64,000 bases of DNA, taken from Bacilli bacterium (GTDB lineage Bacteria; Bacillota_I; Bacilli_A; RF39; UBA660). The DNA is taken from positions 62,477-126,476 of the forward strand of contig JBMNEQ010000004.1 of the NCBI GenBank assembly GCA_050948865.1, written 5' to 3'. Position numbers and translations under genes: made by a program. A model generated the notes under the pieces. The model saw only the letters and a list, made by a program, of their open reading frames with translations, was not told the origin of the DNA and ran no database searches. Shown piece by piece: positions 1,566 to 63,710 of the stretch (position 1 is its first letter; each line of letters starts with the position of its first letter).

Positions 1566-3287
1566 ATGAAAAAGATTAAAAGTCCATGGATGAAATTTCA
1601 AGAAGAAAAAAGGAATGAAATAGAAGTTCCAAAGATGAGTATTTATGAGATGTTTAAGGAGGTAGCTTTAGAAAATCCCACTGCTTTAGCTTATAACTAT
1701 TTTGGGACTATAGTTACTTATAAAAAGTTTTTAGTTCAAATAGACAAAACAGCAGAAGCATTTAAAAGATATGGAGTTAATTTTGGTGATGTTGTAACTA
1801 TTTGTCTTCCTAATTTTCCTGAAGGGATTATTTGTGTTTATGCTTTAAATAAAATAGGAGCAATTGCGAATATGGTTCATCCTTTATCAGGGGAAGGGGA
1901 AATAAAAAGTTATGTTAATGATACTAATAGTAAGATTATTGTAACACTAGATTTAAATAAGAAAAAAATTAAAACTATTATTAAAGATACTAAGTTAAAA
2001 TATGTTATTTTAGTTGATGCTGATGATTCTTTTAACATTTTCTTAAAATTAGGATATAAATTACTTAATAAAAAATTATTTAATGTTAAGAAATTAAAAA
2101 AGCCTTATCTGCGTTTTAAAAACTTTTTGGTTAGTAATCCAGGCGAAAAATTAAAAGATGAAAAGATAATTAAAGATCATGTTGAAAAAAGGGATGCGAT
2201 TATACTTTATAGTGGAGGAACTACAGGAATCCCTAAGGGAATTCTTTTAACTAATGGGAATTTTAATGCTTTAGCTGTTCAAGCAAAACATTTATTTGGC
2301 CATTTTGAAAAGGGAGATAAAGTTTTAACTATTATGCCTATTTTTCATGGTTTTGGATTAGGGGTTTCTATTCATTGTATTTATTGTTTGGTTGGTCAAA
2401 CTATTTTAGTGCCGAAATTTGAAGCGAAAAAGAGTGATAATTTGATTAAAACTTATAAGCCTAATTATATTATAGGTGTTCCAACTTTATTTGAAGCCCT
2501 TTTAAATAATAAAGGTTTTAAAAAGATGAATTTATCTTTTATAAAATATGTTATTAGTGGTGGTGATAGTTTATCTGAATCTTTAAAAGATCGCTTTAAT
2601 GCTTTTTTAAAGGAACATCATTCTTTAGCTGTAATTGAACAAGGATATGGTCTTTCAGAAGCAGTTGCCGCTACATCTTTTGCAAGAAAAGATCTAGGAG
2701 CACCTTGCTCAATTGGGATTCCTTTATTAGGAAATTATTATAAAATTGTGGAAGAGGGTTCTGAAACAGAGGTTCCATATAATAATGATGGTGAGATTTG
2801 TATAACAGGTCCCACAGTAATGAAAGGGTATTTAAATAATCCTGAGGAAACTAATATGGTTTTAAGGAAACATAAGGATGGATATACTTGGTTACATACC
2901 GGAGATGTTGGTTCGATGAGTGAAGATGGAATAGTAACTTATAAACAAAGATATAAAAGAATAATTGTTTCTAGTGGTTATAATGTTTATCCTTTACATG
3001 TAGAAAATATTATTAATAGTCATCCTCTTGTTTTAAAATCTTGTGTTGTTGGAGTGCCTCATAAATATAAAATACAGGTTCCTAAAGCTTTTATAGTTTT
3101 AAAAGAAAATGTTAAGTCTAGCCGAAAAATTAAAAAGGAAATAAAAGAAATATGTCAAAAAAATTTACCTAAATTTTCTATTCCTTATAAATATATTTTT
3201 AAAGAAGAATTTCCTACTACTTTAATTGGAAAAGTTGATTATAGAATATTAGAAAATGATGAAGATGATGAAGAAGATGAAGAATAG
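1566..3287 (+). CDS. AMP-dependent synthetase/ligase (long-chain acyl-CoA or acyl-ACP synthetase-like)
   Basis: AMP-binding signature YSGGTTGIPKGILLTNGN, and the C-terminal half is typical of adenylate-forming enzymes. Unusual poly-acidic tail ENDEDDEEDEE. Confidence 0.8.
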   Translation: MKKIKSPWMKFQEEKRNEIEVPKMSIYEMFKEVALENPTALAYNYFGTIVTYKKFLVQIDKTAEAFKRYGVNFGDVVTICLPNFPEGIICVYALNKIGAIANMVHPLSGEGEIKSYVNDTNSKIIVTLDLNKKKIKTIIKDTKLKYVILVDADDSFNIFLKLGYKLLNKKLFNVKKLKKPYLRFKNFLVSNPGEKLKDEKIIKDHVEKRDAIILYSGGTTGIPKGILLTNGNFNALAVQAKHLFGHFEKGDKVLTIMPIFHGFGLGVSIHCIYCLVGQTILVPKFEAKKSDNLIKTYKPNYIIGVPTLFEALLNNKGFKKMNLSFIKYVISGGDSLSESLKDRFNAFLKEHHSLAVIEQGYGLSEAVAATSFARKDLGAPCSIGIPLLGNYYKIVEEGSETEVPYNNDGEICITGPTVMKGYLNNPEETNMVLRKHKDGYTWLHTGDVGSMSEDGIVTYKQRYKRIIVSSGYNVYPLHVENIINSHPLVLKSCVVGVPHKYKIQVPKAFIVLKENVKSSRKIKKEIKEICQKNLPKFSIPYKYIFKEEFPTTLIGKVDYRILENDEDDEEDEE

Positions 3288-6250: not shown

Positions 6251-7138
6251 CTATTTAGCTTCTTTATAAATAGTTAAATCAAATTTATGATCTAAGGTTT
6301 CTCTTTCATTTAAAGTTAAAGTATCAATCAGAAAATAGCTATGTTGAAGAATTTTTACTTTATCTAAAGGATTATCCCAAGTTAAATCTAAATGAAGCCA
6401 TTTATTATTTAAATAAATTAAATTCCAGACATGATTTTCTGTGGCTATTTTTATATTAGGAATATTTAATTTATATAAAAATAAACTCATCGTATCAGTA
6501 TAACCACTACAAACGGCATATCCTTCAAATAAAGTTCCATAAGCATTATGAGATTGATAAGTTTTATCATTAATATCTTTTATTTTTAAAATATCATATT
6601 CAGTATTTAAAATTAAATAGTCATGTATTTTTTCAATATTTAAAGAGATATCTTTTTTCGGATCAACAAGTTTCATAAATAAGTTATCAATTTCTTTATT
6701 TATTTTTATAATCTTTTCTTCATTATAATATCTACTTACTTCAATATTTACTTTTCCAGAAGGATAATAAGTAGTATATAAAGTTTCATAACTATTATAG
6801 GGATGTACAAAACTATTTAAATGAGATAATTGATAATCATCAATTGAGATATCTTTTACATCTTTAATACAATCTTTATATTCTTTACTACAATAAAAAG
6901 TAAAACTATCCCAACCAGAATTAATAATTGTATAATAAATATTTAATAATTCTTTTTTATTAGTAGGAATAAAATCATTAGTATTTTGAACATATAAAAA
7001 CTGAAGATCTAATTTATATTGATTATCTTCAGGTATTGTTATATTTTTATGATAATTATCGATACTAAATAAATCATTAGTATAAATAAAAAAACATCCA
7101 ACTATAATAATAAATAAAGCAATTAATTTTTTAAACAT
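6251..7138 (-). CDS. transglutaminase-like cysteine protease domain protein (secreted or membrane)
   Basis: N-terminal TM/signal segment. Core resembles the transglutaminase-like Cys-His-Asp fold (YAVCSGY...HVWNLIYL...DLTWDNP). Confidence 0.55.
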   Translation of the reverse strand: MFKKLIALFIIIVGCFFIYTNDLFSIDNYHKNITIPEDNQYKLDLQFLYVQNTNDFIPTNKKELLNIYYTIINSGWDSFTFYCSKEYKDCIKDVKDISIDDYQLSHLNSFVHPYNSYETLYTTYYPSGKVNIEVSRYYNEEKIIKINKEIDNLFMKLVDPKKDISLNIEKIHDYLILNTEYDILKIKDINDKTYQSHNAYGTLFEGYAVCSGYTDTMSLFLYKLNIPNIKIATENHVWNLIYLNNKWLHLDLTWDNPLDKVKILQHSYFLIDTLTLNERETLDHKFDLTIYKEAK

Positions 7139-15946: not shown

Positions 15947-15984
15947 TAAAGACTTTAAGATAATATATATTTTATAAATCGTTG

Positions 15985-16190
15985 ATGAAGGATAGTATTA
16001 AAATGGTTATTTTAAGAGAACTAGTGGTTGGTGAAAACTAGGAATAATGTTTTAAGAATCAACTTCGGAGTGAAACGAGGAATTAAGTATTCGTTTTCGG
16101 TTTAACCGTTATTTAAAAAAAGAGATTAGAGTGTAATTAGGATGGCACCACGGCATTTCGTTCCTAGGGAAGAGAAATGTCTTTTTTTAT
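15985..16190 (+). promoter_or_regulatory. T-box riboswitch leader controlling serS
   Basis: AGAGA box, F-box CCGTTA (16106-16111), T-box AATTAGGATGGCACCACGG (16134-16152), and a terminator hairpin plus T-run (16153-16190) competing with the antiterminator. Confidence 0.75.
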
Positions 16191-40517: not shown

Positions 40518-41954
40518 ATGGGAACTAAAAAAGTAAAAGATATCACTGCTAAAGAAATAGATTTTGCTCAGTGGTATACAGACGTTGTTAAAAAAACTGA
40601 ATTGGTTGATTATTCAACTGTTAAGGGTTGTTTGATTATTAGACCCTATGGGTATGCAATTTGGGAAAATATTCAAAAATATCTTGATGCTAAATTTAAA
40701 GAAACTAATCATGAAAATGTTTATATGCCTTTATTTATTCCAGAAAGTTTATTAAATATGGAAAAAGAACATGTTGAAGGTTTTGCTCCTGAGGTAGCTT
40801 GGATTACTCATGGAGGAGATGATCAATTAATAGAAAGATTGTGTGTAAGACCAACTTCAGAAGTATTATTTTGTGATCATTATTCCAAGATAGTAAAATC
40901 TTATAGAGATTTACCTAAATTATATAATCAATGGTGTTCAGTAGTTAGATGGGAAAAAACAACAAGACCTTTTTTAAGATCAAGAGAATTTCTTTGGCAA
41001 GAAGGACATACCATTCATGCCACTAAAGAAGAAGCGATGGAAGAAACTTTAAGAATGTTAAATGTTTATGCTGACTTTTTAAAGGATTATTTAGCTATTC
41101 CAACTATTAAAGGAGAGAAAACTCCAAGTGAAAAATTTGCTGGGGCTTGGAATACTTTTACCATTGAAGGTTTAATGGATAATGGAGTTGCTTTACAAAT
41201 GGGAACTTCTCATTATTTTGGTGATAATTTTTCTAAACCTTTTAAGATAATTTTTACTAATGAATTTAATGAAGAAAAGTATGTTCATCAAACATCATGG
41301 GGTTTATCAACTAGAGTAATTGGCGGTTTAATCATGGTTCATGGTGATAATAATGGTTTAGTTTTACCACCAAATATTGCTCCAACGAAGATCGCGATTA
41401 TTCTTATTAATCCTAATTTAGAAGTTAAAGAAACAGCTATTAAAATTAAAGAAGAATTAACTAAAAATAATATTACTAATCTTTTAGATTTATCAGATAA
41501 AACACCTGGTTTTAAATTTTCTTTATATGAAATGAAAGGTTTTCCTCTTCGTTTAGAGCTCGGCCCAAAAGATTTATTAAATCAACAATGTGTTTTGGTG
41601 CGTCGTGATACAGGTGCTAAAAGTATAGTTTTAATAGAAAACTTAATTGAAGAAGTAAATAATTTATTAATGGATATTCAAAATAATTTATATGAAAAAG
41701 CTTTAAAAAGAAGAATGGAAAGGACTTTTGAGGTAAAAAATTTAAAGGAAATGAAAGAAATTATTGATAAAACTCCAGGTTTTATTAAAGCTTATTGGTG
41801 CGGAGATAAAGAGTGTGAAGAAAAGGTGAAAGAAGAAACAGGAGCTTCATCTAGATGTATTCCTTTAGAACAACCTTTAAATATGGGAACTACTAAATGT
41901 TTTGTCTGTGGTAAGAAAGCAACTAAATTAGTTTATTTTGGATTACAGTATTAA
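40518..41954 (+). CDS. proS: prolyl-tRNA synthetase (archaeal/eukaryotic-type short form)
   Basis: 478 aa with class II motifs and a C-terminal zinc-binding domain (CFVCGKKA). It lacks the bacterial insertion/editing domain. Confidence 0.9.
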
Positions 41955-55503: not shown

Positions 55504-56433
55504 ATGGAAGAGTTTTTAAAAAAGTTTTTAAATTATTTAACTTATCAAAAAAGATATTCTAAACATACAGTTTTTAATTATGAAAAGGATATTGAATTAT
55601 TTCATGAATTTTTAAAAAGAAAAACTTTAACATATCACACTTTAACTTATCAAAATATAAGAGAGTTTTTAATGGAACTATATGATAAAGATTATGCTAG
55701 AAGTAGTGTTTCTAGAAAGATAAGTTCTTTACGTAGTTATTTTAAGTATTTAGTTTTAGAAGATGTTTTAGAAGAAAATATTTTTAAATTAGTTTCTTTA
55801 CCAAAAAAAGAAAAGAAAATACCTAAATTTATTTATCATCATGATTTAATGCCTTTATTTGAAGTTCCTGATCTTTTAACACCTTTAGGACAAAGAAATC
55901 GTTTAATCTTAGAAATACTTTATGGAACAGGAATAAGAGTTCAAGAATTAGTAGATATTAAAATAGAAGATATTGATCAATCAAATAAATTAATTAGAAT
56001 ATTAGGAAAAGGTAATAAAGAAAGAATGGTTGTTTATGGAGAATATAGTGAAGAAATATTAAATTTATATTTACAAGAAGGACGTTTTAAATTACTAGGT
56101 AATAATTATAGTGATTATTTATTTTTAAACAATCAAGGTAACAAAATATCTCCTAGGGGTGTTAGATATATATTAAACAAATTAATAAAAGAAACTAGTT
56201 TAAAAATAAATATTTCTCCCCATGTTTTACGTCATACATTCGCTACTCATATGTTAGAAAATGGGGCTGATTTAATTACTGTTCAAGAATTACTAGGACA
56301 TGTTAGTTTATCAACAACAGGAAAATATATGCATGTTACTAATGAAAGATTAAGAGAAGTCTATTTACACCATCATCCAAGAGCTAGAGAGAATATCGTT
56401 GAATTAAAAAGTAAGTTCCCGTTTGAATGCTAA
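55504..56433 (+). CDS. tyrosine recombinase, XerC/XerD family
   Basis: N-terminal SAM-like core-binding domain, and catalytic HVLRHTFATHMLENGADL...LGHVSLSTTGKYMHV with RHR/Y residues. GGTGA RBS before ATG 55504. Confidence 0.85.
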   Translation: MEEFLKKFLNYLTYQKRYSKHTVFNYEKDIELFHEFLKRKTLTYHTLTYQNIREFLMELYDKDYARSSVSRKISSLRSYFKYLVLEDVLEENIFKLVSLPKKEKKIPKFIYHHDLMPLFEVPDLLTPLGQRNRLILEILYGTGIRVQELVDIKIEDIDQSNKLIRILGKGNKERMVVYGEYSEEILNLYLQEGRFKLLGNNYSDYLFLNNQGNKISPRGVRYILNKLIKETSLKINISPHVLRHTFATHMLENGADLITVQELLGHVSLSTTGKYMHVTNERLREVYLHHHPRARENIVELKSKFPFEC

Positions 56434-56689
56434 AATATAATTTCGTTACAAAGTTCTCGTTTGTGGGAGTTTTTTTAGTGTTTAAAATCTAAAAAGATGG
56501 TCTTTTTTTCAATATTATGATACTATATATTCGATGTTATAAATTTATAGCAGCTAAAAAAGGATACGTACTTGGTCATTTTAAGACTTAGTTCCCGTAT
56601 CGGAATAATAAAAAAGAATTGTTGTTGGCTATTATTTGCCAACCAATCATTTAAAGTTATAGTAGATTTTTAAGTGATTGGTTGACAAT

Positions 56690-57960
56690 CATTTGTAAGC
56701 AAAATGATCATCAATGAAAACTTTATTTAATTTTATAATCACTTAGATTAAATGTTACATTATCAGGTTTTATGTAAGAGCAATTTAATTTTTTTATAAA
56801 ATTCGGATAAAGTTTTTTAGTTAATTCATATGGTGTCTTATTATCTAAACTTACTCTTGGAGTATTGTTTATGTTATTCTCAAGAAACTTCACTGTTTCA
56901 TCAGTCAAATTTTCAAAAGATGTTCCTTTAGTAAAAACCTTTCTGATGTAATAGTGATTTTTTTCTATTTCTGCTTTTTGATTTGATTGATAAGGATCAC
57001 AATAAAACACATTACATATTTTTTTATTGTTTTTATAATCTCTTTCCATCATATCAGGATTGAAAAATTCTCCTCCATTGTCGGTCAAAATAATCCGTAA
57101 AACTTGAGCGTATAACTTAATACCAAGTGTGTCTTTTAAAAATACAAATTTATCATCTACTGATGCTATATTATTTTTATCTAATAAAAAAATCAACATA
57201 AACTTAGTTTTAATAATTAAAAGCGTTAATAATACTTTTGAATTACCTTGTTTTCCAATAACAGTATCCATTTGGGCAACGTTCATTCTAGGATGTATAG
57301 TTGTGAAAAGCAGATAATCGTTATAAGTTCTATTTTTTAGAATAGCTAATTCACGTCTATTTCTACGTTGATTTAATTTCCTTTTTTTGTATTTTACTTT
57401 TTTAGGTAAATCTAAATTTGTTAAAGACAAAGCGTTAATATCAATGTACTTATAAAAAGTTGTTTTGCTCATGCAAAGAATGTCTTTGTGGTTTGCAAAT
57501 ACTTGGTTAACACTTTGTTTTTTATCTTTTATAAGTGGAACTATTATTTCTTCTATTTCTTCAATCTCTTGAGGAGTGATATCAATGCCTTCTCTTGTTG
57601 TACGAAGTTTAAGTTTATATAAATCGTATGCTATCTTAGCGTTATAGTAAAGCTTTTTTTTAGAGCATCCTCCTTTGGCTGAACAATTATTACAAACATA
57701 TGGAACTTTATTGAGTTTAGGACAATTTGATGTGTTTTCATTGTTGTTTGAATATTTAGAGTATCTATTTCTTTTTACTTCTTTAGCAATAGTGGTGCGA
57801 TCCTTTTCAATTGTTTTTCCAATATCAGTAAATGTAACGTTTTTTCTTATTAAAATTTCTATAACATCTCTTTGTTCTTTAGTAAGATGATTGTAACTTG
57901 ATTTTGCCATTTTGACACTTCCTTTCATTAATGGCAAATAAACCAACATAGAATATAATA
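56690..57960 (-). mobile_element. IS30-family insertion sequence (boundaries approximate)
   Basis: Single transposase ORF fills the element. Its flanks are intergenic and contain inverted GC-bearing motifs (ccaaccaatca/tgattggttg). The terminal inverted repeats could not be delimited by eye. Confidence 0.45.
56723..57910 (-). CDS. IS30-family transposase (HTH plus DDE)
   Basis: N-terminal HLTKEQRDVIEILIRKNVTFTDIGKTIEKDRTTIAKEVKRNRY matches the IS30 HTH signature, and a DDE region lies downstream. GGAAGTG RBS before ATG 57910. Confidence 0.85.
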   Translation of the reverse strand: MAKSSYNHLTKEQRDVIEILIRKNVTFTDIGKTIEKDRTTIAKEVKRNRYSKYSNNNENTSNCPKLNKVPYVCNNCSAKGGCSKKKLYYNAKIAYDLYKLKLRTTREGIDITPQEIEEIEEIIVPLIKDKKQSVNQVFANHKDILCMSKTTFYKYIDINALSLTNLDLPKKVKYKKRKLNQRRNRRELAILKNRTYNDYLLFTTIHPRMNVAQMDTVIGKQGNSKVLLTLLIIKTKFMLIFLLDKNNIASVDDKFVFLKDTLGIKLYAQVLRIILTDNGGEFFNPDMMERDYKNNKKICNVFYCDPYQSNQKAEIEKNHYYIRKVFTKGTSFENLTDETVKFLENNINNTPRVSLDNKTPYELTKKLYPNFIKKLNCSYIKPDNVTFNLSDYKIK

Positions 57961-58512
57961 TAACTAATTAATAAATATAGCAAAGTAAAATTCATTTCTA
58001 ATAATTGATGAACTAAGTTTGATGGTTAAAATCCCTAAATTATTAAGTGATATGAATTTGCTCGTTTCTTGTTTGTTATATATAATGAATTAGGAATTTA
58101 AAAAATAGGTTCTTAATAAAAACAGTTCTATTACAGATGATATTACTGATAAAGATTGGATTTAAGTCAAGTATTTAGACGCTTTTTTATAAACGTTTTA
58201 ATTTATATTTAAATTTATTCCAATTTCCTTTATGATTTTAGGAACCCAATTCGTGTTAATTTTGTCGTGGAAAGCGTATAGACGCTTTCGCTTTTACGAC
58301 TAACACGAATTGCCTAAAATAATAAAGTTTTCTCGGCATAAATACAAAAAAATTCCTTAAAAGGAATCCAAAAAATTATTTCAACAACTAAGTTCCCATA
58401 TGGTAGTTGGGCGGGAACTTACCTTTTTATTTAACAGCTAGAGAGAATATTATTGACATAACTAAAGATAGTGATAAAATATAATTATAATTAAAAAAGA
58501 AAAAGGTGAATC

Positions 58513-59034
58513 ATGATTGATTTTATAGAATTTTTAAAAGATATATTTGGTTATGCTATTATAATTGCTTTAATTATTTTAATTAGAATATTTGTTTTAG
58601 TTCCTATTGAGGTAGTAGGAACTTCTATGGAACCAAATTTAAAAAATGGGGATATAATATTAATGGATAAAGTAGCATATAATTATTTTAAATTAAAACG
58701 TTTTGATGTTATAGTATCTGAATATGATAGCCCTAAACATATAGTTAAAAGAATAATAGGTTTACCAGGAGATAAAATTAGATATATAGATAATAAATTA
58801 TATATTAATGAAAAAGAAGTAGAAGAAAAATTTAATAAATATGGAGTAATAGAAGATTATTCTTTAAAAGAATTAGATTATGAAAAAATACCAGAAGATA
58901 TGTATTTTGTAATAGGGGATAATAGAGAAGATTCTGTTGATAGTCGTAGTTTTGGTTTAATCCATAAAGAAGAAATAGAAGGAAAACCTTTTCTTGTTAT
59001 ATGGCCCTTAAATCATTTTAAGTTAGTAAAATAA
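58513..59034 (+). CDS. signal peptidase I, second copy
   Basis: GTSMEPNL, KRIIGLPGD and GDNREDSVDSR boxes. 173 aa. Confidence 0.85.
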   Translation: MIDFIEFLKDIFGYAIIIALIILIRIFVLVPIEVVGTSMEPNLKNGDIILMDKVAYNYFKLKRFDVIVSEYDSPKHIVKRIIGLPGDKIRYIDNKLYINEKEVEEKFNKYGVIEDYSLKELDYEKIPEDMYFVIGDNREDSVDSRSFGLIHKEEIEGKPFLVIWPLNHFKLVK

Positions 59035-59284
59035 TAAAAGACTTTTATTGTTTCCCAACAATTGCCAAAAAATAATTTTTGTGCTATTATATTTTTAAGT
59101 TTAGACATTTATTATTTAATTTGGCAAACTTTTTGAAAGAAAAGGACGCAAAGTTGGGAATCTAAGGTATTAGTGATGGTAATTGAATACTATGATCGTC
59201 CAACTGCAACTAGCGAATATTGCAGTTTTTTGTTTGAATAATAAGTGTTGAACGGGCTAAATATATTAATGGGAGGAAATATTT

Positions 59285-62200
59285 ATGCTAAACAGAAAAT
59301 TTATTGTAGCTTTTGCAGTTACAGTACTCGTTTTCTTGGGAATCTATACGTTTGCGTTAAACCCGCCAGCAGATGAACCTAAGGACGATGAAACAGGTGT
59401 TAAGGAGGAGCAAAAGACACCGAAAGAAGAGAATATAGAAGGGGAAAATATAGAGGAAGGGGAAGAGGCTGAAGAAGAATTTGAAGAAGGAACAGGAAGT
59501 GGTTTACAATTTACTCCTGGAAGAATTATACCTACTACAAGTTCTGTAACTAATTTACCAGAAAAGGTAGAGGAAGATACTGAAGAACCAGTGGTAGAGG
59601 AAGAAGTTATTCCATTATCAATTTCAGGAGTAGAAGAAGGGGCATATTATAATGATGAGCAACAGTTAGAAATAAAAGGAACAAACATAATTAGTGTTAA
59701 ACGTAATGGGGAATCAGTTGGATTTACAGGTGGTAATTATTCTTTTAGTGAAGAAGCTGAATATGAAATAGTTGTTACTGATAATGATAATAATACTATT
59801 TCAGTGAATTTTGTGATTGATACTACTGTTCCAAGTATAAGTGGAATTGAAGAAAATACACATACGAATAATGAAGTAGAAATAACAATTGAGGATAAAA
59901 ATTTAGAATCAGTTTTAGTTAACGATGAAATAATTGAATTAGATGAAAATAATAAATTTGTTCTTAGTGAAGAAAATGAATATGTTGTTATCGTTACTGA
60001 TAAAGCGAATAATCAAACTAAAGTTGAATTCGTTATTGATAAAACAGCTCCTGAGGTAAAACTTAATGGAGATAAAAAAATATATTTAGAATTCAATCAA
60101 GATTATTATGATGATAAAGGTGCTACTGCAACAGATACTTTTACTGCAACAGAAGAATTAATATTTAGAAATTTAATTGAATATGTTGAAGTAATAGATG
60201 GTAATAAAAACTTCGTTAAAGTTTCAGAAATTGATAATACAAAAATTGGAAGATATAAAGTTTGGTATTATTTTAAAGATAAAGCTGGTAATGAAGGTAA
60301 TGCCATAAGAAATGTTTATGTAGAAGATACTACTTCACCTATTATTGAATTAATAGGGGATTCAGAAATAATTATGAATCCATCAATTTTCTATTTTGAT
60401 CAAGGAGCCACAGCTACTGATAATTATGATGGAGATTTAACAAAGAAAATTAAAAAAACAGGTTTTGTTAATCCATTAATTCCAGGAAAATATACGATTA
60501 CTTATAATGTTACTGATAGTAATGGAAATGAAGCTGAACCTGTATCAAGAACCGTGATTGTTAAAGATACAATTAAACCAACAGTATTATTATTACCATA
60601 TGGTAATAATAAAGCAGCTAAAACTCATAGTACTTGGGTAATTGTTTTAGATAATCACCGTGTTGATAATGATAGTTTAAAATATATATGGACTGATTCA
60701 ACAGAAGCGCCAACTAAAGAAGAATTTAGTAATGAATTTAGAAATTTTAATGTAATTAAAAGTCCATCTGATTTAAATGGAACCTATTATTTATGGATTT
60801 ATGCTAAAGATGTTAGTGGCAATGAAACAATAGTTAGTAGTAAAGCTTTTAATTTTGATAATGAAGGCCCAAGTGTAGAGGTAAATTATAGTATTACTGA
60901 AGAAACTAATGAAAATGTAGTAGTAACTATTAGTGCAAATGAAAAGATGCAAAAAGTAGATGGTTGGACATTATCAAATGATAAAAAAGAATTAAAGAAA
61001 GATTATAAAACAAATGTTTCTAATGAACGTGTTGTCTTAAAAGATTTGTTAGGAAATAGTACAGAAGTTTTTATAAGTATAACTAATATAGATAAAGGAA
61101 AACCTGATTTTAAAATTTCAAGGAATATTCCTTTTGATCAACCAACTAATCAAGATGTTACTCTAACTTTTGCTATTGCTTATGATAATTCTGGCGGTTT
61201 TGGTCTTCATGATGAACCTTATTCATTTGATGGGGGAAAGACATGGACTAATGACTCTTCTAAAACCTTTTCAAAAAACCAAAGTGTTAATGTAATGTTA
61301 AGAGATAAAGTTGGTAATACCTGTTCAGGAAGTATTAAAATTACCAATATTGATAAGGAAACTCCTGTTGTAACTTATAATGATAAAGAACAAAGAACAG
61401 TCAAAGAAACAATTACAATAAACCCAGATGGGGAATATGATGTGGAAGGAAACAATCCTTTTCTAGTAACAGATAATAGTCAAGAAGGTTATTTAGAACC
61501 TTATGAAATAAAAATTAGATATGCTCCAGAATGGGATGGGCAAAATGGAACATATAATGGTAAAAAAGTAGATAAAGTTGATTTGGGATTACTAGGAGTA
61601 TATAGAATTGATTATAAATATAAAGATGAAGCAGGTAATAAAACTTATGGTGCTGTTTGGATTTATGTAGTTGTTGGTGAAAAACAAGTTTATAATGAAA
61701 CAAAACAAATTCTTTATGATGTTATACAAGAAGCAATAAATGAAGCAGATGAAGGAAATACGATTTTAGTAGGACCTGGAGAATATGATGTAGCATATAT
61801 TAAAGAATCTAAAAAACATTATTTATTGATTGAAAAACCAATAATTATTAAAGCTGCTGAAATGGATAATAAACCTATTTTAGTTGGAGATTATAATCAA
61901 ATTCAAGCTCAAGGAAGCCATCAACAGGCAACCATAGAAATTTATAATACTGATAATGTTACTTTAGATGGTTTAGTTATACATAGTATAGAAAACTATC
62001 CTTCGACCTTTACTAAAGCATTAGAAATAACAAATTCAAATAATACTCTTATAAATAATTGTACTATTTACGATGAAGGTAGGACCGCTATTTATATTGC
62101 TGGAAATGAAGTAGGAAAATATACAATTTCAAATAATAACCTTGATGGTTCTATTGTTGTAGCTAATGGTGCTGGTGATGGAGAAGGGGCTAATGAAGCC

Positions 62201-63415
62201 ATTATTAAAAATAATGTTATAAATGGAAGTATTTCTTTTACAGGAAAAACCAATTCAGGTTGGGATCCTTTATCTATTAACGAATATCCAAATATAAAAA
62301 ATAATGTTATTAATGGAACAAATGAAGGAATGTTATTGAATAGTCGTGATAGTGATGAAGGTAATTTAATTAGTAATGATCTTTTAAATATGATTATCGA
62401 AAATAATGAGTTCCCTAGTGGAGAAATAGGTATAATGAAGGATAGTTATGAATGTTATGATGCAGAATTACATAGAAAAAGACTTATTTTAAATCCTTTG
62501 ATTATTAATACTACAACTAGTTTTTCTTATTTAACTCTTCAAAATGCAATTAATGATGCTAACGAAGGAGATACTATTAAATTATTTGATCATCTTCAAC
62601 TTAGTTCGACAATAAATATTTCTAATCTTAATTTTACACTAGATTTGAATGGTCATAGTTTGACAACTCCAGATGCTGAGGGTTCGGCTGCCCAAACGGT
62701 GTTTAAAATTGTTGGGGAGTCTAATGTTACGATACAAGGTAAAGGTTTGATTCAATCAGGGACCACTACTAGTTATGAAGGGTTTGTTAATATGACTCCA
62801 ACAATCCATATAAATGATGCAAATTCTAGTCTTACAATAGATAATGCAACTATTAAAGGTGGAGATTCCATTAATTCACGAGATACAGCACCGGCCCTTT
62901 GGGGTCAAAACTTTAAGGAAATTAACATTATTGATGCAACTATACTCGGGGGAGACCACATTAAGAAAAAAGATGTAGGTATTGGATATAACAATTATGC
63001 TACTGCAGGTTATGCGATTGATTTAAATGTAGCAAGTGGCAAAACTGTAAATATCATTAGAAGTACCATTAGTGGTGGTAATGGAATAAACGGTGGATAT
63101 AATACTTTTGAACAAGGTGAAGGATATAAGCAAGCTTCTGGTGGGCAAGCATTTTCTATGAATCAAACAAACGAAATAAATATTACAAATTCCACTATTA
63201 GGGGCGGTCACAGTGATTTACATCATGGAGGTCATGCTATTGTACGAGGCGTGGGGAAATTTGATATAAAAGCCTCTAGTTTAGTTGGTGGAAATGGTAA
63301 TAAAGAAAATGGATATTCGGCAGGAAAAGGAGTATCTGGCTATGATTCTGGAAGTGGTAGTTACACTATTGATGAAAACTCTACTATAACTGATGGAGGT
63401 TCAAGTAATTCATAA
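59285..63415 (+). CDS. large exported surface protein: N-terminal signal-anchor, acidic linker, about 6 DUF5011/Ig-like repeats, parallel beta-helix (pectate-lyase-like) repeats, Gly-rich C-terminus
   Basis: N-terminal hydrophobic segment. Repeated ...DQGATATDNYDGDLT...TYNVTDSNGNEAEP..RTVIVKDTIKP modules (DUF5011-like). NNCTIYD.../ISNNNLDGS PbH1-type repeats. No LPXTG or SLH motif seen. Confidence 0.8.
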   Translation: MLNRKFIVAFAVTVLVFLGIYTFALNPPADEPKDDETGVKEEQKTPKEENIEGENIEEGEEAEEEFEEGTGSGLQFTPGRIIPTTSSVTNLPEKVEEDTEEPVVEEEVIPLSISGVEEGAYYNDEQQLEIKGTNIISVKRNGESVGFTGGNYSFSEEAEYEIVVTDNDNNTISVNFVIDTTVPSISGIEENTHTNNEVEITIEDKNLESVLVNDEIIELDENNKFVLSEENEYVVIVTDKANNQTKVEFVIDKTAPEVKLNGDKKIYLEFNQDYYDDKGATATDTFTATEELIFRNLIEYVEVIDGNKNFVKVSEIDNTKIGRYKVWYYFKDKAGNEGNAIRNVYVEDTTSPIIELIGDSEIIMNPSIFYFDQGATATDNYDGDLTKKIKKTGFVNPLIPGKYTITYNVTDSNGNEAEPVSRTVIVKDTIKPTVLLLPYGNNKAAKTHSTWVIVLDNHRVDNDSLKYIWTDSTEAPTKEEFSNEFRNFNVIKSPSDLNGTYYLWIYAKDVSGNETIVSSKAFNFDNEGPSVEVNYSITEETNENVVVTISANEKMQKVDGWTLSNDKKELKKDYKTNVSNERVVLKDLLGNSTEVFISITNIDKGKPDFKISRNIPFDQPTNQDVTLTFAIAYDNSGGFGLHDEPYSFDGGKTWTNDSSKTFSKNQSVNVMLRDKVGNTCSGSIKITNIDKETPVVTYNDKEQRTVKETITINPDGEYDVEGNNPFLVTDNSQEGYLEPYEIKIRYAPEWDGQNGTYNGKKVDKVDLGLLGVYRIDYKYKDEAGNKTYGAVWIYVVVGEKQVYNETKQILYDVIQEAINEADEGNTILVGPGEYDVAYIKESKKHYLLIEKPIIIKAAEMDNKPILVGDYNQIQAQGSHQQATIEIYNTDNVTLDGLVIHSIENYPSTFTKALEITNSNNTLINNCTIYDEGRTAIYIAGNEVGKYTISNNNLDGSIVVANGAGDGEGANEAIIKNNVINGSISFTGKTNSGWDPLSINEYPNIKNNVINGTNEGMLLNSRDSDEGNLISNDLLNMIIENNEFPSGEIGIMKDSYECYDAELHRKRLILNPLIINTTTSFSYLTLQNAINDANEGDTIKLFDHLQLSSTINISNLNFTLDLNGHSLTTPDAEGSAAQTVFKIVGESNVTIQGKGLIQSGTTTSYEGFVNMTPTIHINDANSSLTIDNATIKGGDSINSRDTAPALWGQNFKEINIIDATILGGDHIKKKDVGIGYNNYATAGYAIDLNVASGKTVNIIRSTISGGNGINGGYNTFEQGEGYKQASGGQAFSMNQTNEINITNSTIRGGHSDLHHGGHAIVRGVGKFDIKASSLVGGNGNKENGYSAGKGVSGYDSGSGSYTIDENSTITDGGSSNS

Positions 63416-63710
63416 GAATTAGAATAAACATAGGATACAGGGACATATTTACTGTCTTATAACGCAGTAATCTAAAACAAACTGGGTGGTTCAAAGTGAA
63501 TCATCCAGTTTTCTTTTTTATCCCATGGAAAAGCGAGCAATTAAGTTCCCTTCTGTGAAGTGTTTTTTTAACAAAAACAATCTTATCTGAATAAAAGATT
63601 ATCTATATTGATAACAAATTATAAAAGAGCATCTGCTCTTTTTTTCTTGTGAATAATGTTATATTATGCTAAAATTAAGTTGTAAGTAAGATAGTAAGGG
63701 AGTGAATGTA

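Follow-up and report, generated by a model that had tools for sequence, protein, structure and literature searches.

Insertion sequences (IS) of the IS30 family are typically near 1.0-1.25 kb in length and duplicate 2-3 bp of target DNA, and subterminal sequences reportedly modulate the transposition of IS30 itself (work from the Olasz laboratory). In phage Mu (L1-L3/R1-R3) and in Tn7, each end of the element carries several transposase-binding repeats, and their number, spacing and orientation differ between left and right. IS30 measures ~1.2 kb, and (IS)2 tandems and circles are known IS30 intermediates (PMC9330008). A second member of the family, IS1630 from Mycoplasma fermentans, has 27-bp inverted repeats and 16-26-bp duplications (PMC3317919) and, in the account of Calcutt et al. 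1999 as cited in that paper, targets, and makes duplicates of, inverted repeats that vary in length. ISMhom-1 of M. hominis, also of the IS30 family and likewise with 27-bp inverted repeats and an unusually long duplication, is found in the 3' ends of genes, where it leaves the open reading frames (ORFs) intact (PMC7648426). Finally, TnGBS, ISLre2 and some elements of the ISKra4 group, which have Mutator-like transposases, integrate with a single orientation at sigma-A promoters, 15-17 bp upstream of the -35 box, a specificity that has been called unique; asymmetry of the two inverted repeats has been proposed to set the orientation (PMC3942029). Here we describe a 2,040-bp IS30-family element at 56397-58436 of a 64,000-nucleotide stretch of Bacilli bacterium DNA (contig JBMNEQ010000004.1; the whole stretch analyzed is called the window), which lies between xerC, encoding a XerC-like tyrosine recombinase, and lepB. 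We find that a short motif recurring in this region, TAAGTTCCC, is very probably the conserved inner core (AAGTTCCCG) of sites at which the transposase of this element would recognize its own ends.

A preliminary description of the window had drawn attention to this motif, and its recurrence is real. TAAGTTCCC occurs four times exactly in the window, at 56412-56420 (+), 58389-58397 (+), 58413-58421 (-) and 63542-63550 (+), against 0.51 copies expected on both strands, and none of 100 dinucleotide-preserving shuffles reached four. The degenerate copies (AAGTTCTCG at 56451-56459 and TTAGTTCCCG at 56588-56597) and the 33-nt palindrome at 58389-58421, which is made of 9-bp arms and a 15-nt loop, are also located as first described, while the last copy had been placed one base too low. 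The motif had been said to occur only in non-coding DNA; this is not strictly true, since the copy at 56412 falls within the reading frame that xerC has today. Nor are the occurrences all independent, because a single repeated element of 2,040 bp accounts for five of the six listed copies. Treating that element as one occurrence leaves only the copy at 63542 outside it, against ~0.5 expected, which is unremarkable.

The boundaries of the element were defined from its repeats and from its other copies. Repeat finding identified a 24-nt inverted repeat at 56398-56421 / 58412-58435 (88% complementary, with 21/24 positions matching) that has the motif in each arm and is flanked by the direct repeat AGCTAGAGAGAATAT; an inverted-repeat pair with a flanking direct repeat is the signature of a transposable element with a target-site duplication. 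An exact lookup of the window transposase protein returned 19 contigs, including contigs from other samples. In the same metagenome the identical transposase is encoded in at least four places; the window's own contig (787,845 bp) has three of these and a contig of 29,943 bp has another, and the neighbors at these loci are mutL/rpmG, an AAA ATPase gene, lon and, in the window, xerC-lepB. When the copies are aligned, identity starts at TGTTAAAT and stops at ATTCAACG, which corresponds to 56397-58436 in the window. Target duplications at three of the same-metagenome loci measure 14 bp (the window's GCTAGAGAGAATAT), 14 bp and 13 bp, and across the IS family 12-14-bp direct repeats border 24 insertions, including insertions in closed long-read chromosomes. 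The features of the element are as follows.

56397-58436, minus strand: complete IS30-family insertion sequence of 2,040 bp; the identical sequence occurs with other flanks, and identity ends exactly at both positions.
56383-56396, plus strand: left copy of the target-site duplication, GCTAGAGAGAATAT, within the last conserved codons of xerC.
58437-58450, plus strand: right copy of the target-site duplication, GCTAGAGAGAATAT, a direct repeat of the left copy.
56723-57949, minus strand: transposase ORF of 408 amino acids (aa); the true start is likely the ATG at 57910, 3' of the ribosome-binding site GAAAGGAAG.
56397-56421, plus strand: right terminal inverted repeat (IRR), C-GTTGAATTAAAAAGT-AAGTTCCCG, with site R1 at 56412-56420 (nhmmer E = 1.2e-6).
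58412-58436, minus strand: left terminal inverted repeat (IRL), which on that strand reads T-GTTAAATAAAAAGGT-AAGTTCCCG, with site L1 at 58413-58421 (nhmmer E = 3.8e-6).
58389-58397, plus strand: site L2, a subterminal core inverted with respect to L1 and forming the other arm of the palindrome; at position 39-41 in 23/28 relatives, covarying with L1.
56451-56476, plus strand: site R2 (AAGTTCTCG), a direct core that also makes up the 5' arm of a short hairpin with a T-run after it, inward from IRR; at position 56-58 in 20/28 relatives.
56588-56597, plus strand: site R3 (TTAGTTCCCG), the third direct core of the right end; at position 175-217 in 28/28 complete relatives.

Assignment to the IS30 family is based on both protein and DNA features. 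The NCBIfam model NF033563 (IS30 family transposase) matches the window transposase with 87.1 bits (cutoff 80, E = 1.5e-24), Pfam HTH_38 matches at residues 18-61 of its N-terminus (E = 2e-9), and more than 4,000 homologues were found. A family-model score above the cutoff, an N-terminal helix-turn-helix (HTH), imperfect inverted repeats of ~25 bp and multiple copies with target duplication are all as the family requires. The short duplication and the length of a typical IS30 element are not found here: the duplication is 12-14 bp, and the element measures 2,040 bp, with relatives of 1.6-2.04 kb. Exceptions to the short duplication have been published (IS1630), so the element is atypical and its IS30 membership stands. 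The interval between the HTH and the catalytic domain also contains an invariant Cys cluster, C-X9-C-X2-C-X5-C (residues 76-95, ~57665-57724, minus strand), that is present in 18/18 aligned family members and may be a zinc-binding module; we know of no such cluster in canonical IS30.

In each of the two terminal inverted repeats (25 bp), AAGTTCCCG is found at positions 17-25, where it follows an A/T-rich tip of the form (G/A)TT(A/G)AAT(A/T)AAA. The two tips differ (IRL GTTAAATAAAA vs IRR GTTGAATTAAA), and this difference is conserved across the IS family. Measured from the tips, the cores of the window IS lie at 18/40 on the left and 18/56/194 on the right, and these five sites are the five copies of the preliminary description that lie in the element. 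L2 is located 13-15 nt further inward than the left terminal core.

The same architecture is found in related elements. Relatives were gathered at 59-82% transposase identity from metagenome contigs, and a further 80 loci at 40-58% identity were taken from genomes, mostly gut metagenome-assembled genomes named "uncultured Bacilli bacterium". In most collected loci the inverted-repeat profile matches both upstream and downstream, and ~50 distinct related ends have the same inverted-repeat build, with the core at positions 17-25 of both inverted repeats. The core reads AAGTTCCC(G/A) in most elements and AAATGCAC, AAATGCCC, AAATTCTC, AAGTGCAC or AAGTTCCA in others, and the IRL and IRR cores agree within each element. 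We mapped 28 complete related elements (40-82% transposase identity) with each element's own core, allowing one mismatch, and obtained a common map: on the left, a direct core at 18 and an inverted core at 39-41; on the right, cores at 18, 56-58 and 175-217, all direct. The central 1.0-1.4 kb of the 28 elements has few core matches. Between L1 and L2, pairing is kept in 82% of cells and both sides have changed in 18 cells, and 0 of 500 shuffles reach either value; when the registers are slid, at most 54% are paired. R1 and R3 have no pairing partner, yet they keep the same core and change it jointly with the other sites. In general, a core that varies between elements tends to do so at all of an element's sites at once.

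Given that the core is kept at the unpaired sites R1 and R3, and that two sites 2 kb apart are equidistant from the tips, recognition by the element's own transposase is the simplest reading of the motif. We propose that the IS30-type transposase probably binds the five core sites through its N-terminal helix-turn-helix region and that binding at these sites would assemble the transposition complex. The unequal arrays, with two sites on the left and three on the right, would let the transposase tell the ends apart. We infer both that the transposase is the core-binding protein and that the asymmetry sets the orientation of insertion.

Other explanations of the motif attach it to the genes around the element, to the host genome at large or to structure in the nucleic acid. 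The copies had been suggested to be binding sites of the adjacent XerC-like recombinase, and recombination sites (dif-like or att-like) of that enzyme would be a related reading; in support, the 3' end of the xerC ORF is overlapped by a copy, and two copies together make a palindrome. This is almost certainly wrong: the same sites move with the IS to at least three other loci of the same genome, beside mutL/rpmG, the AAA ATPase gene and lon, with no xerC nearby, and they are also present in related IS of other genomes. Their layout is also unlike that of a Xer (dif-like) site, which has two ~11-bp arms around a 6-8-bp center and occurs once per replicon, independently of mobile elements; here there is a single inverted pair, inside the IS, whose 9-bp arms are separated by 15 nt, and the sites are found at every IS copy. 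Nor is there support for the further suggestion that the copies are boundary repeats of a recombinase/IS30/adhesin island, since the mobile unit comprises only 56397-58436 with its own 14-bp duplication, leaving lepB, a riboswitch and a giant surface-protein gene outside, and since at the copy that follows the giant gene the rest of the inverted repeat is absent. A third suggestion, that the motifs are remnants of a repeated element's ends, was right as to element ends, but these are the intact ends and subterminal sites of an IS30-family element and not remnants. We also consider it highly improbable that the motif has nothing to do with the IS and represents either a regulator's operator or a host repeat scattered through intergenic DNA, similar to repetitive extragenic palindromes or to miniature inverted-repeat transposable elements. 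Such a repeat would account for the one exact intergenic copy outside the IS (63542), but it should have many transposase-independent intergenic copies, and the remaining 62 kb of the window contain no other exact copy. Near matches elsewhere occur at the number expected by chance, and the one inspected closely (41201) is inside a gene. In 10 IS-bearing loci, exact TAAGTTCCC is found at IS positions only, with 0 copies in the flanks. In addition, no Rfam family matches the motif: at the motif copies there was nothing at the gathering threshold nor up to E = 5, and the Rfam matches in all were a c-di-GMP-I riboswitch, a T-box and chance microRNA-like matches on a hairpin past the transposase stop. 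No transfer RNA genes were found. A weak match to the inverted-repeat model at 41196-41214 was rejected, being inside a 478-aa ORF.

A more serious alternative is that the repeats act mainly as hairpins, that is, as inward-facing terminators or insulators at both IS ends, with their sequence identity a by-product. We judge this unlikely. L1 and L2 do form a 9-bp stem that is upheld by compensatory changes, and R2, in the window IS as in many relatives, supplies the 5' arm of a short stem that a T-run follows. The leader of the element contains another hairpin with a T-run, and it and the R2 hairpin face inward, as if stopping transcription into the IS:

58346-58369, minus strand: terminator-like hairpin and T-run (GGATTCCTTTTAAGGAATTTTTTT) in the IS leader, inward from IRL; read from the sequence, it fails the stem and GC criteria of the terminator scanner.

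However, hairpins do not account for R1 and R3, which are unpaired and nonetheless keep the same core and covary with the other sites, and L1 and R1, which are 2 kb apart, are equidistant from the tips, a placement that recognition of the ends by a protein would predict. The L1/L2 stem has no T-run directly after it and its stability is not unusual (z = -0.87), and a terminator scan found none. Recognition of the cores by the transposase thus remains our preferred reading, and several observations qualify it, the account of the insertion that goes with it or the signal of the motif itself. As DNA or RNA hairpins, L1/L2 and R2 (with its T-run) could be, for example, insulating terminators, instead of or in addition to serving as protein sites, and the covariation of L1 and L2 does not separate the two roles. 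A search of metagenome contigs for an IRR-IRL junction of the window IS, as formed in a circle or dimer, gave 0 matches. The enrichment of TAAGTTCCC in the window is gone when one mismatch is allowed (19 copies vs 16.7 expected), and the signal is therefore limited to a 7-kb stretch. An exact-match metagenome scan for the empty xerC-lepB site gave 0 matches as well, and nine contigs with identical LepB all contain the IS or break at it; with no unoccupied site in the scan and all LepB contigs abutting the IS, the insertion seems to be fixed in the sampled population. Lastly, one exact copy of the motif is not explained by the IS:

63542-63550, plus strand: isolated TAAGTTCCC, 3' of the giant gene and outside the IS; it matches the core part of the inverted-repeat model only (E = 14).

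This copy is located between two terminator-like hairpins, and its profile match is no better than dozens of chance ones; in the window, the inverted-repeat profile (nhmmer) is significant at the two true ends only. The copy is probably a chance match. It is doubtful that it is what erosion has left of an old right end of this IS. In support of such an origin, the 28 nt that begin at 63543 can be aligned to 56451-56478, the region of the R2 hairpin (AAGTTCCCTTCTGTGAAGTGTTTTTTTA vs AAGTTCTCGTTTGTG-GGAGTTTTTTTA), and this alignment was equalled in only 13/1000 shuffles. However, the comparison with R2 was picked post hoc, after the match had been seen, there is no inverted-repeat tip or other IS sequence beside the copy, and chance alone would supply ~0.5 exact copies in the window.

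Insertions of this IS family share a second property, which is their position relative to host promoters. Flanks were read outward from the IS tips, and a promoter was defined as at least 9/12 matches to TTGACA-N16-18-TATAAT with the -35 box starting 15-18 nt from the tip. A sigma-70-like promoter is present at that position in 27/43 distinct IRL flanks and in 1/48 IRR flanks (Fisher p = 6e-11), and the IS end and the -35 box are separated by 15 nt (n = 12), 16 nt (n = 11) or 17 nt (n = 4). Near-consensus -35 hexamers peak at positions 16-18 (18/42 IRL flanks, with at most 3 in other bins) and near-consensus -10 hexamers at positions 37-42 (34 occurrences vs a background of ~3 per bin), and the right (IRR) flank is flat for both. 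When flanks are divided by core, the pattern is found in 25/34 of those with a AAGTTCCC-like core and in 2/9 of those with other cores. All four IS copies of the window's metagenome obey the rule, and in the window itself the promoter is that of lepB:

58453-58480, plus strand: lepB promoter, TTGACA, a 16-nt spacer and TAAAAT, with TG before the -10 box (11/12 consensus matches).

Its -35 box starts 16 nt past the tip of IRL, and its direction of transcription leads away from the IS. In the family as a whole, the flank promoters are beyond the duplicated 12-14 bp, their sequence varies between sites, and host genes follow in the flanks read further; these promoters are therefore the host's and not the IS's. 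Selection against gene disruption could enrich intergenic insertions, but it does not explain a fixed spacing together with a fixed orientation, and we therefore infer that the family truly targets promoters. In the literature searched, the scope of which did not extend to ISfinder or subscription journals, there was no report of promoter targeting in the IS30 family. Sigma-70 region 4, as a possible reader of the -35 box, had no Pfam match in the transposase N-terminus even at E = 10. Mimicry by the IRR tip (GTTGAAT vs the target RTTGAC) as the cause of the promoter association is neither supported nor excluded. Subclades with the IRR tip ACTGAAT are still found at promoters, and eight flanks have no TTGA at positions 15-18, yet have a good -10 box at the right spacing. 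On balance, we lean toward the view that these elements constitute a large, apparently undescribed IS30-family clade in uncultured Bacilli, with five-core 2+3 ends, 12-14-bp duplications and oriented insertion 15-17 bp upstream of the -35 box.

The comparison with described elements is consistent in some respects and divergent in others. Like E. coli IS30, the window IS has an IS30-type DDE transposase, an N-terminal HTH and imperfect inverted repeats of ~25 bp; unlike IS30, it is 2.04 kb long, has a 12-14-bp duplication, an asymmetric 2+3 arrangement of core sites and a Cys cluster, and is associated with promoter-adjacent targets. Head-to-tail tandems are present in two relatives (locus L035 at 2960-3050 with a 14-bp spacer, locus L066 at 3180-3270 with a 12-bp spacer), each spacer being as long as the local target duplication, and these are either (IS)2-type intermediates (cf. 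(IS30)2, PMC9330008) or assembly products of circles. The window IS resembles IS1630 and ISMhom-1, with which it was compared by their descriptions, in its long duplication and in its insertion at the 3' end of a gene (xerC); it differs from IS1630 in that its duplication is near-constant at 12-14 bp and contains no palindrome, and in being ~0.7 kb longer. With TnGBS, ISLre2 and the ISKra4 group, the IS family of the window shares the oriented 15-17-nt gap to the -35 box and a conserved asymmetry of IRL and IRR. Unlike in TnGBS and ISLre2, the transposase is of the IS30 type and the promoter is beside the end upstream of the transposase gene, and there is no Mutator-like (p-MULT 3/4) family among the Pfam and NCBIfam matches of the window transposase. 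The resemblance to TnGBS and ISLre2 is functional, concerning target choice, and is not one of membership. Phage Mu and Tn7 share with the window IS unequal left and right repeat arrays, which in the window IS are predicted binding sites; their transposases are unrelated to that of the window IS and the elements are much larger.

The history of the window locus can be read from the xerC gene. The element inserted in the last xerC codons, upstream of the lepB promoter and 16 bp from its -35 box, with duplication of 14 bp, and the insertion swapped the C-terminal tail of XerC for IS-encoded residues. XerC homologues (52-65% identity) end 1-6 residues past a conserved HPRAR. The window XerC runs ...RARENI and then VELKSKFPFEC, a tail encoded by IRR, with the stop codon inside the IS. 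Past the IS, the duplicated 14 bp continues in frame as IDITKDSDKI and a stop codon, which is likely the former XerC tail. The catalytic domain of XerC is untouched by the insertion. A motif copy overlaps xerC because the IS inserted into the last codons of the gene, and the proximity of motif and xerC is coincidental.

Several further structures were observed within the element. An inner inverted repeat surrounds the transposase ORF at 57926-57941 and 56623-56640 (ATGGCAAATAAACCAA vs TTGGCTATTATTTGCCAA), and relatives have analogous inner repeats, for example GTTTCATTTGTCA. A 20-nt hairpin is located 3' of the transposase stop (56636-56688). The 487-nt leader between IRL and the transposase start contains a long imperfect hairpin of ~70 nt at 58236-58312 (minus strand), and the whole leader folds better than shuffled controls (z = -4.4).

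Other copies of the element have been altered in different ways. In the copy at locus L001 (4228-4450), the right end is gone from ~114 nt past the transposase stop, where a 12-13-bp microhomology joins it to rpmG (ribosomal protein L33); the truncated rpmG now terminates in IS-encoded residues after KKYC. This shortened copy prompted consideration of the inner inverted repeat as an alternative IS end, which was rejected because the junction is the microhomology with rpmG and is consistent with deletion. The copy at locus L003 was considered to be truncated, and this too was rejected, as an ISNCY-family IS interrupts the copy and its right end resumes beyond. The interrupting element (L003 4481-6154) is 1,674 bp long, encodes a 465-aa transposase (NF033594, 343 bits), has a 30-bp duplication and lies inside the right end of the IS30-like copy; a further copy of it begins at position 6975 of locus L004. 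At loci L005 / L107 (sample 3300028603), one contig links the lepB side of the window IS to the far side of another IS locus, and the duplications do not match. Either IS copies have recombined in another strain or the assembly of this contig is chimeric. A blastn search of a plasmid collection with 56300-58600 gave no match, and a sensitive blastn search of the rest of the window for fragments of the IS returned nothing but AT-rich alignments of low complexity.

Outside the element, a c-di-GMP-I riboswitch at 59113-59211 (plus strand; 67 bits vs a gathering score of 35) lies directly upstream of the surface protein gene at 59285-63415, which encodes 1376 aa with Ig-like surface domains (Pfam). 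A T-box leader is found at 15973-16168 (plus strand; 117 bits vs a gathering score of 93).

As a part of an IS the motif is ordinary, and with its reassignment to the architecture of the IS ends no new regulatory system is needed around xerC or the surface-protein gene. The conserved core sites, which change jointly, provide a ready map for testing how an IS30-type transposase distinguishes its left from its right end. The clade is an unusual variant of the IS30 family and is chiefly notable for its promoter-proximal targeting, the fixed position of which suggests a second, independent origin of promoter-targeted transposition in bacteria. If both targeting rules are real, the same safe landing site has been reached convergently by two families of transposase, which may read the RNA polymerase bound at promoters, and a comparison with TnGBS and ISLre2 could tell whether the transposase reads DNA sequence or the bound polymerase. 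The promoter rule would also help to annotate promoters in uncultured low-GC genomes.

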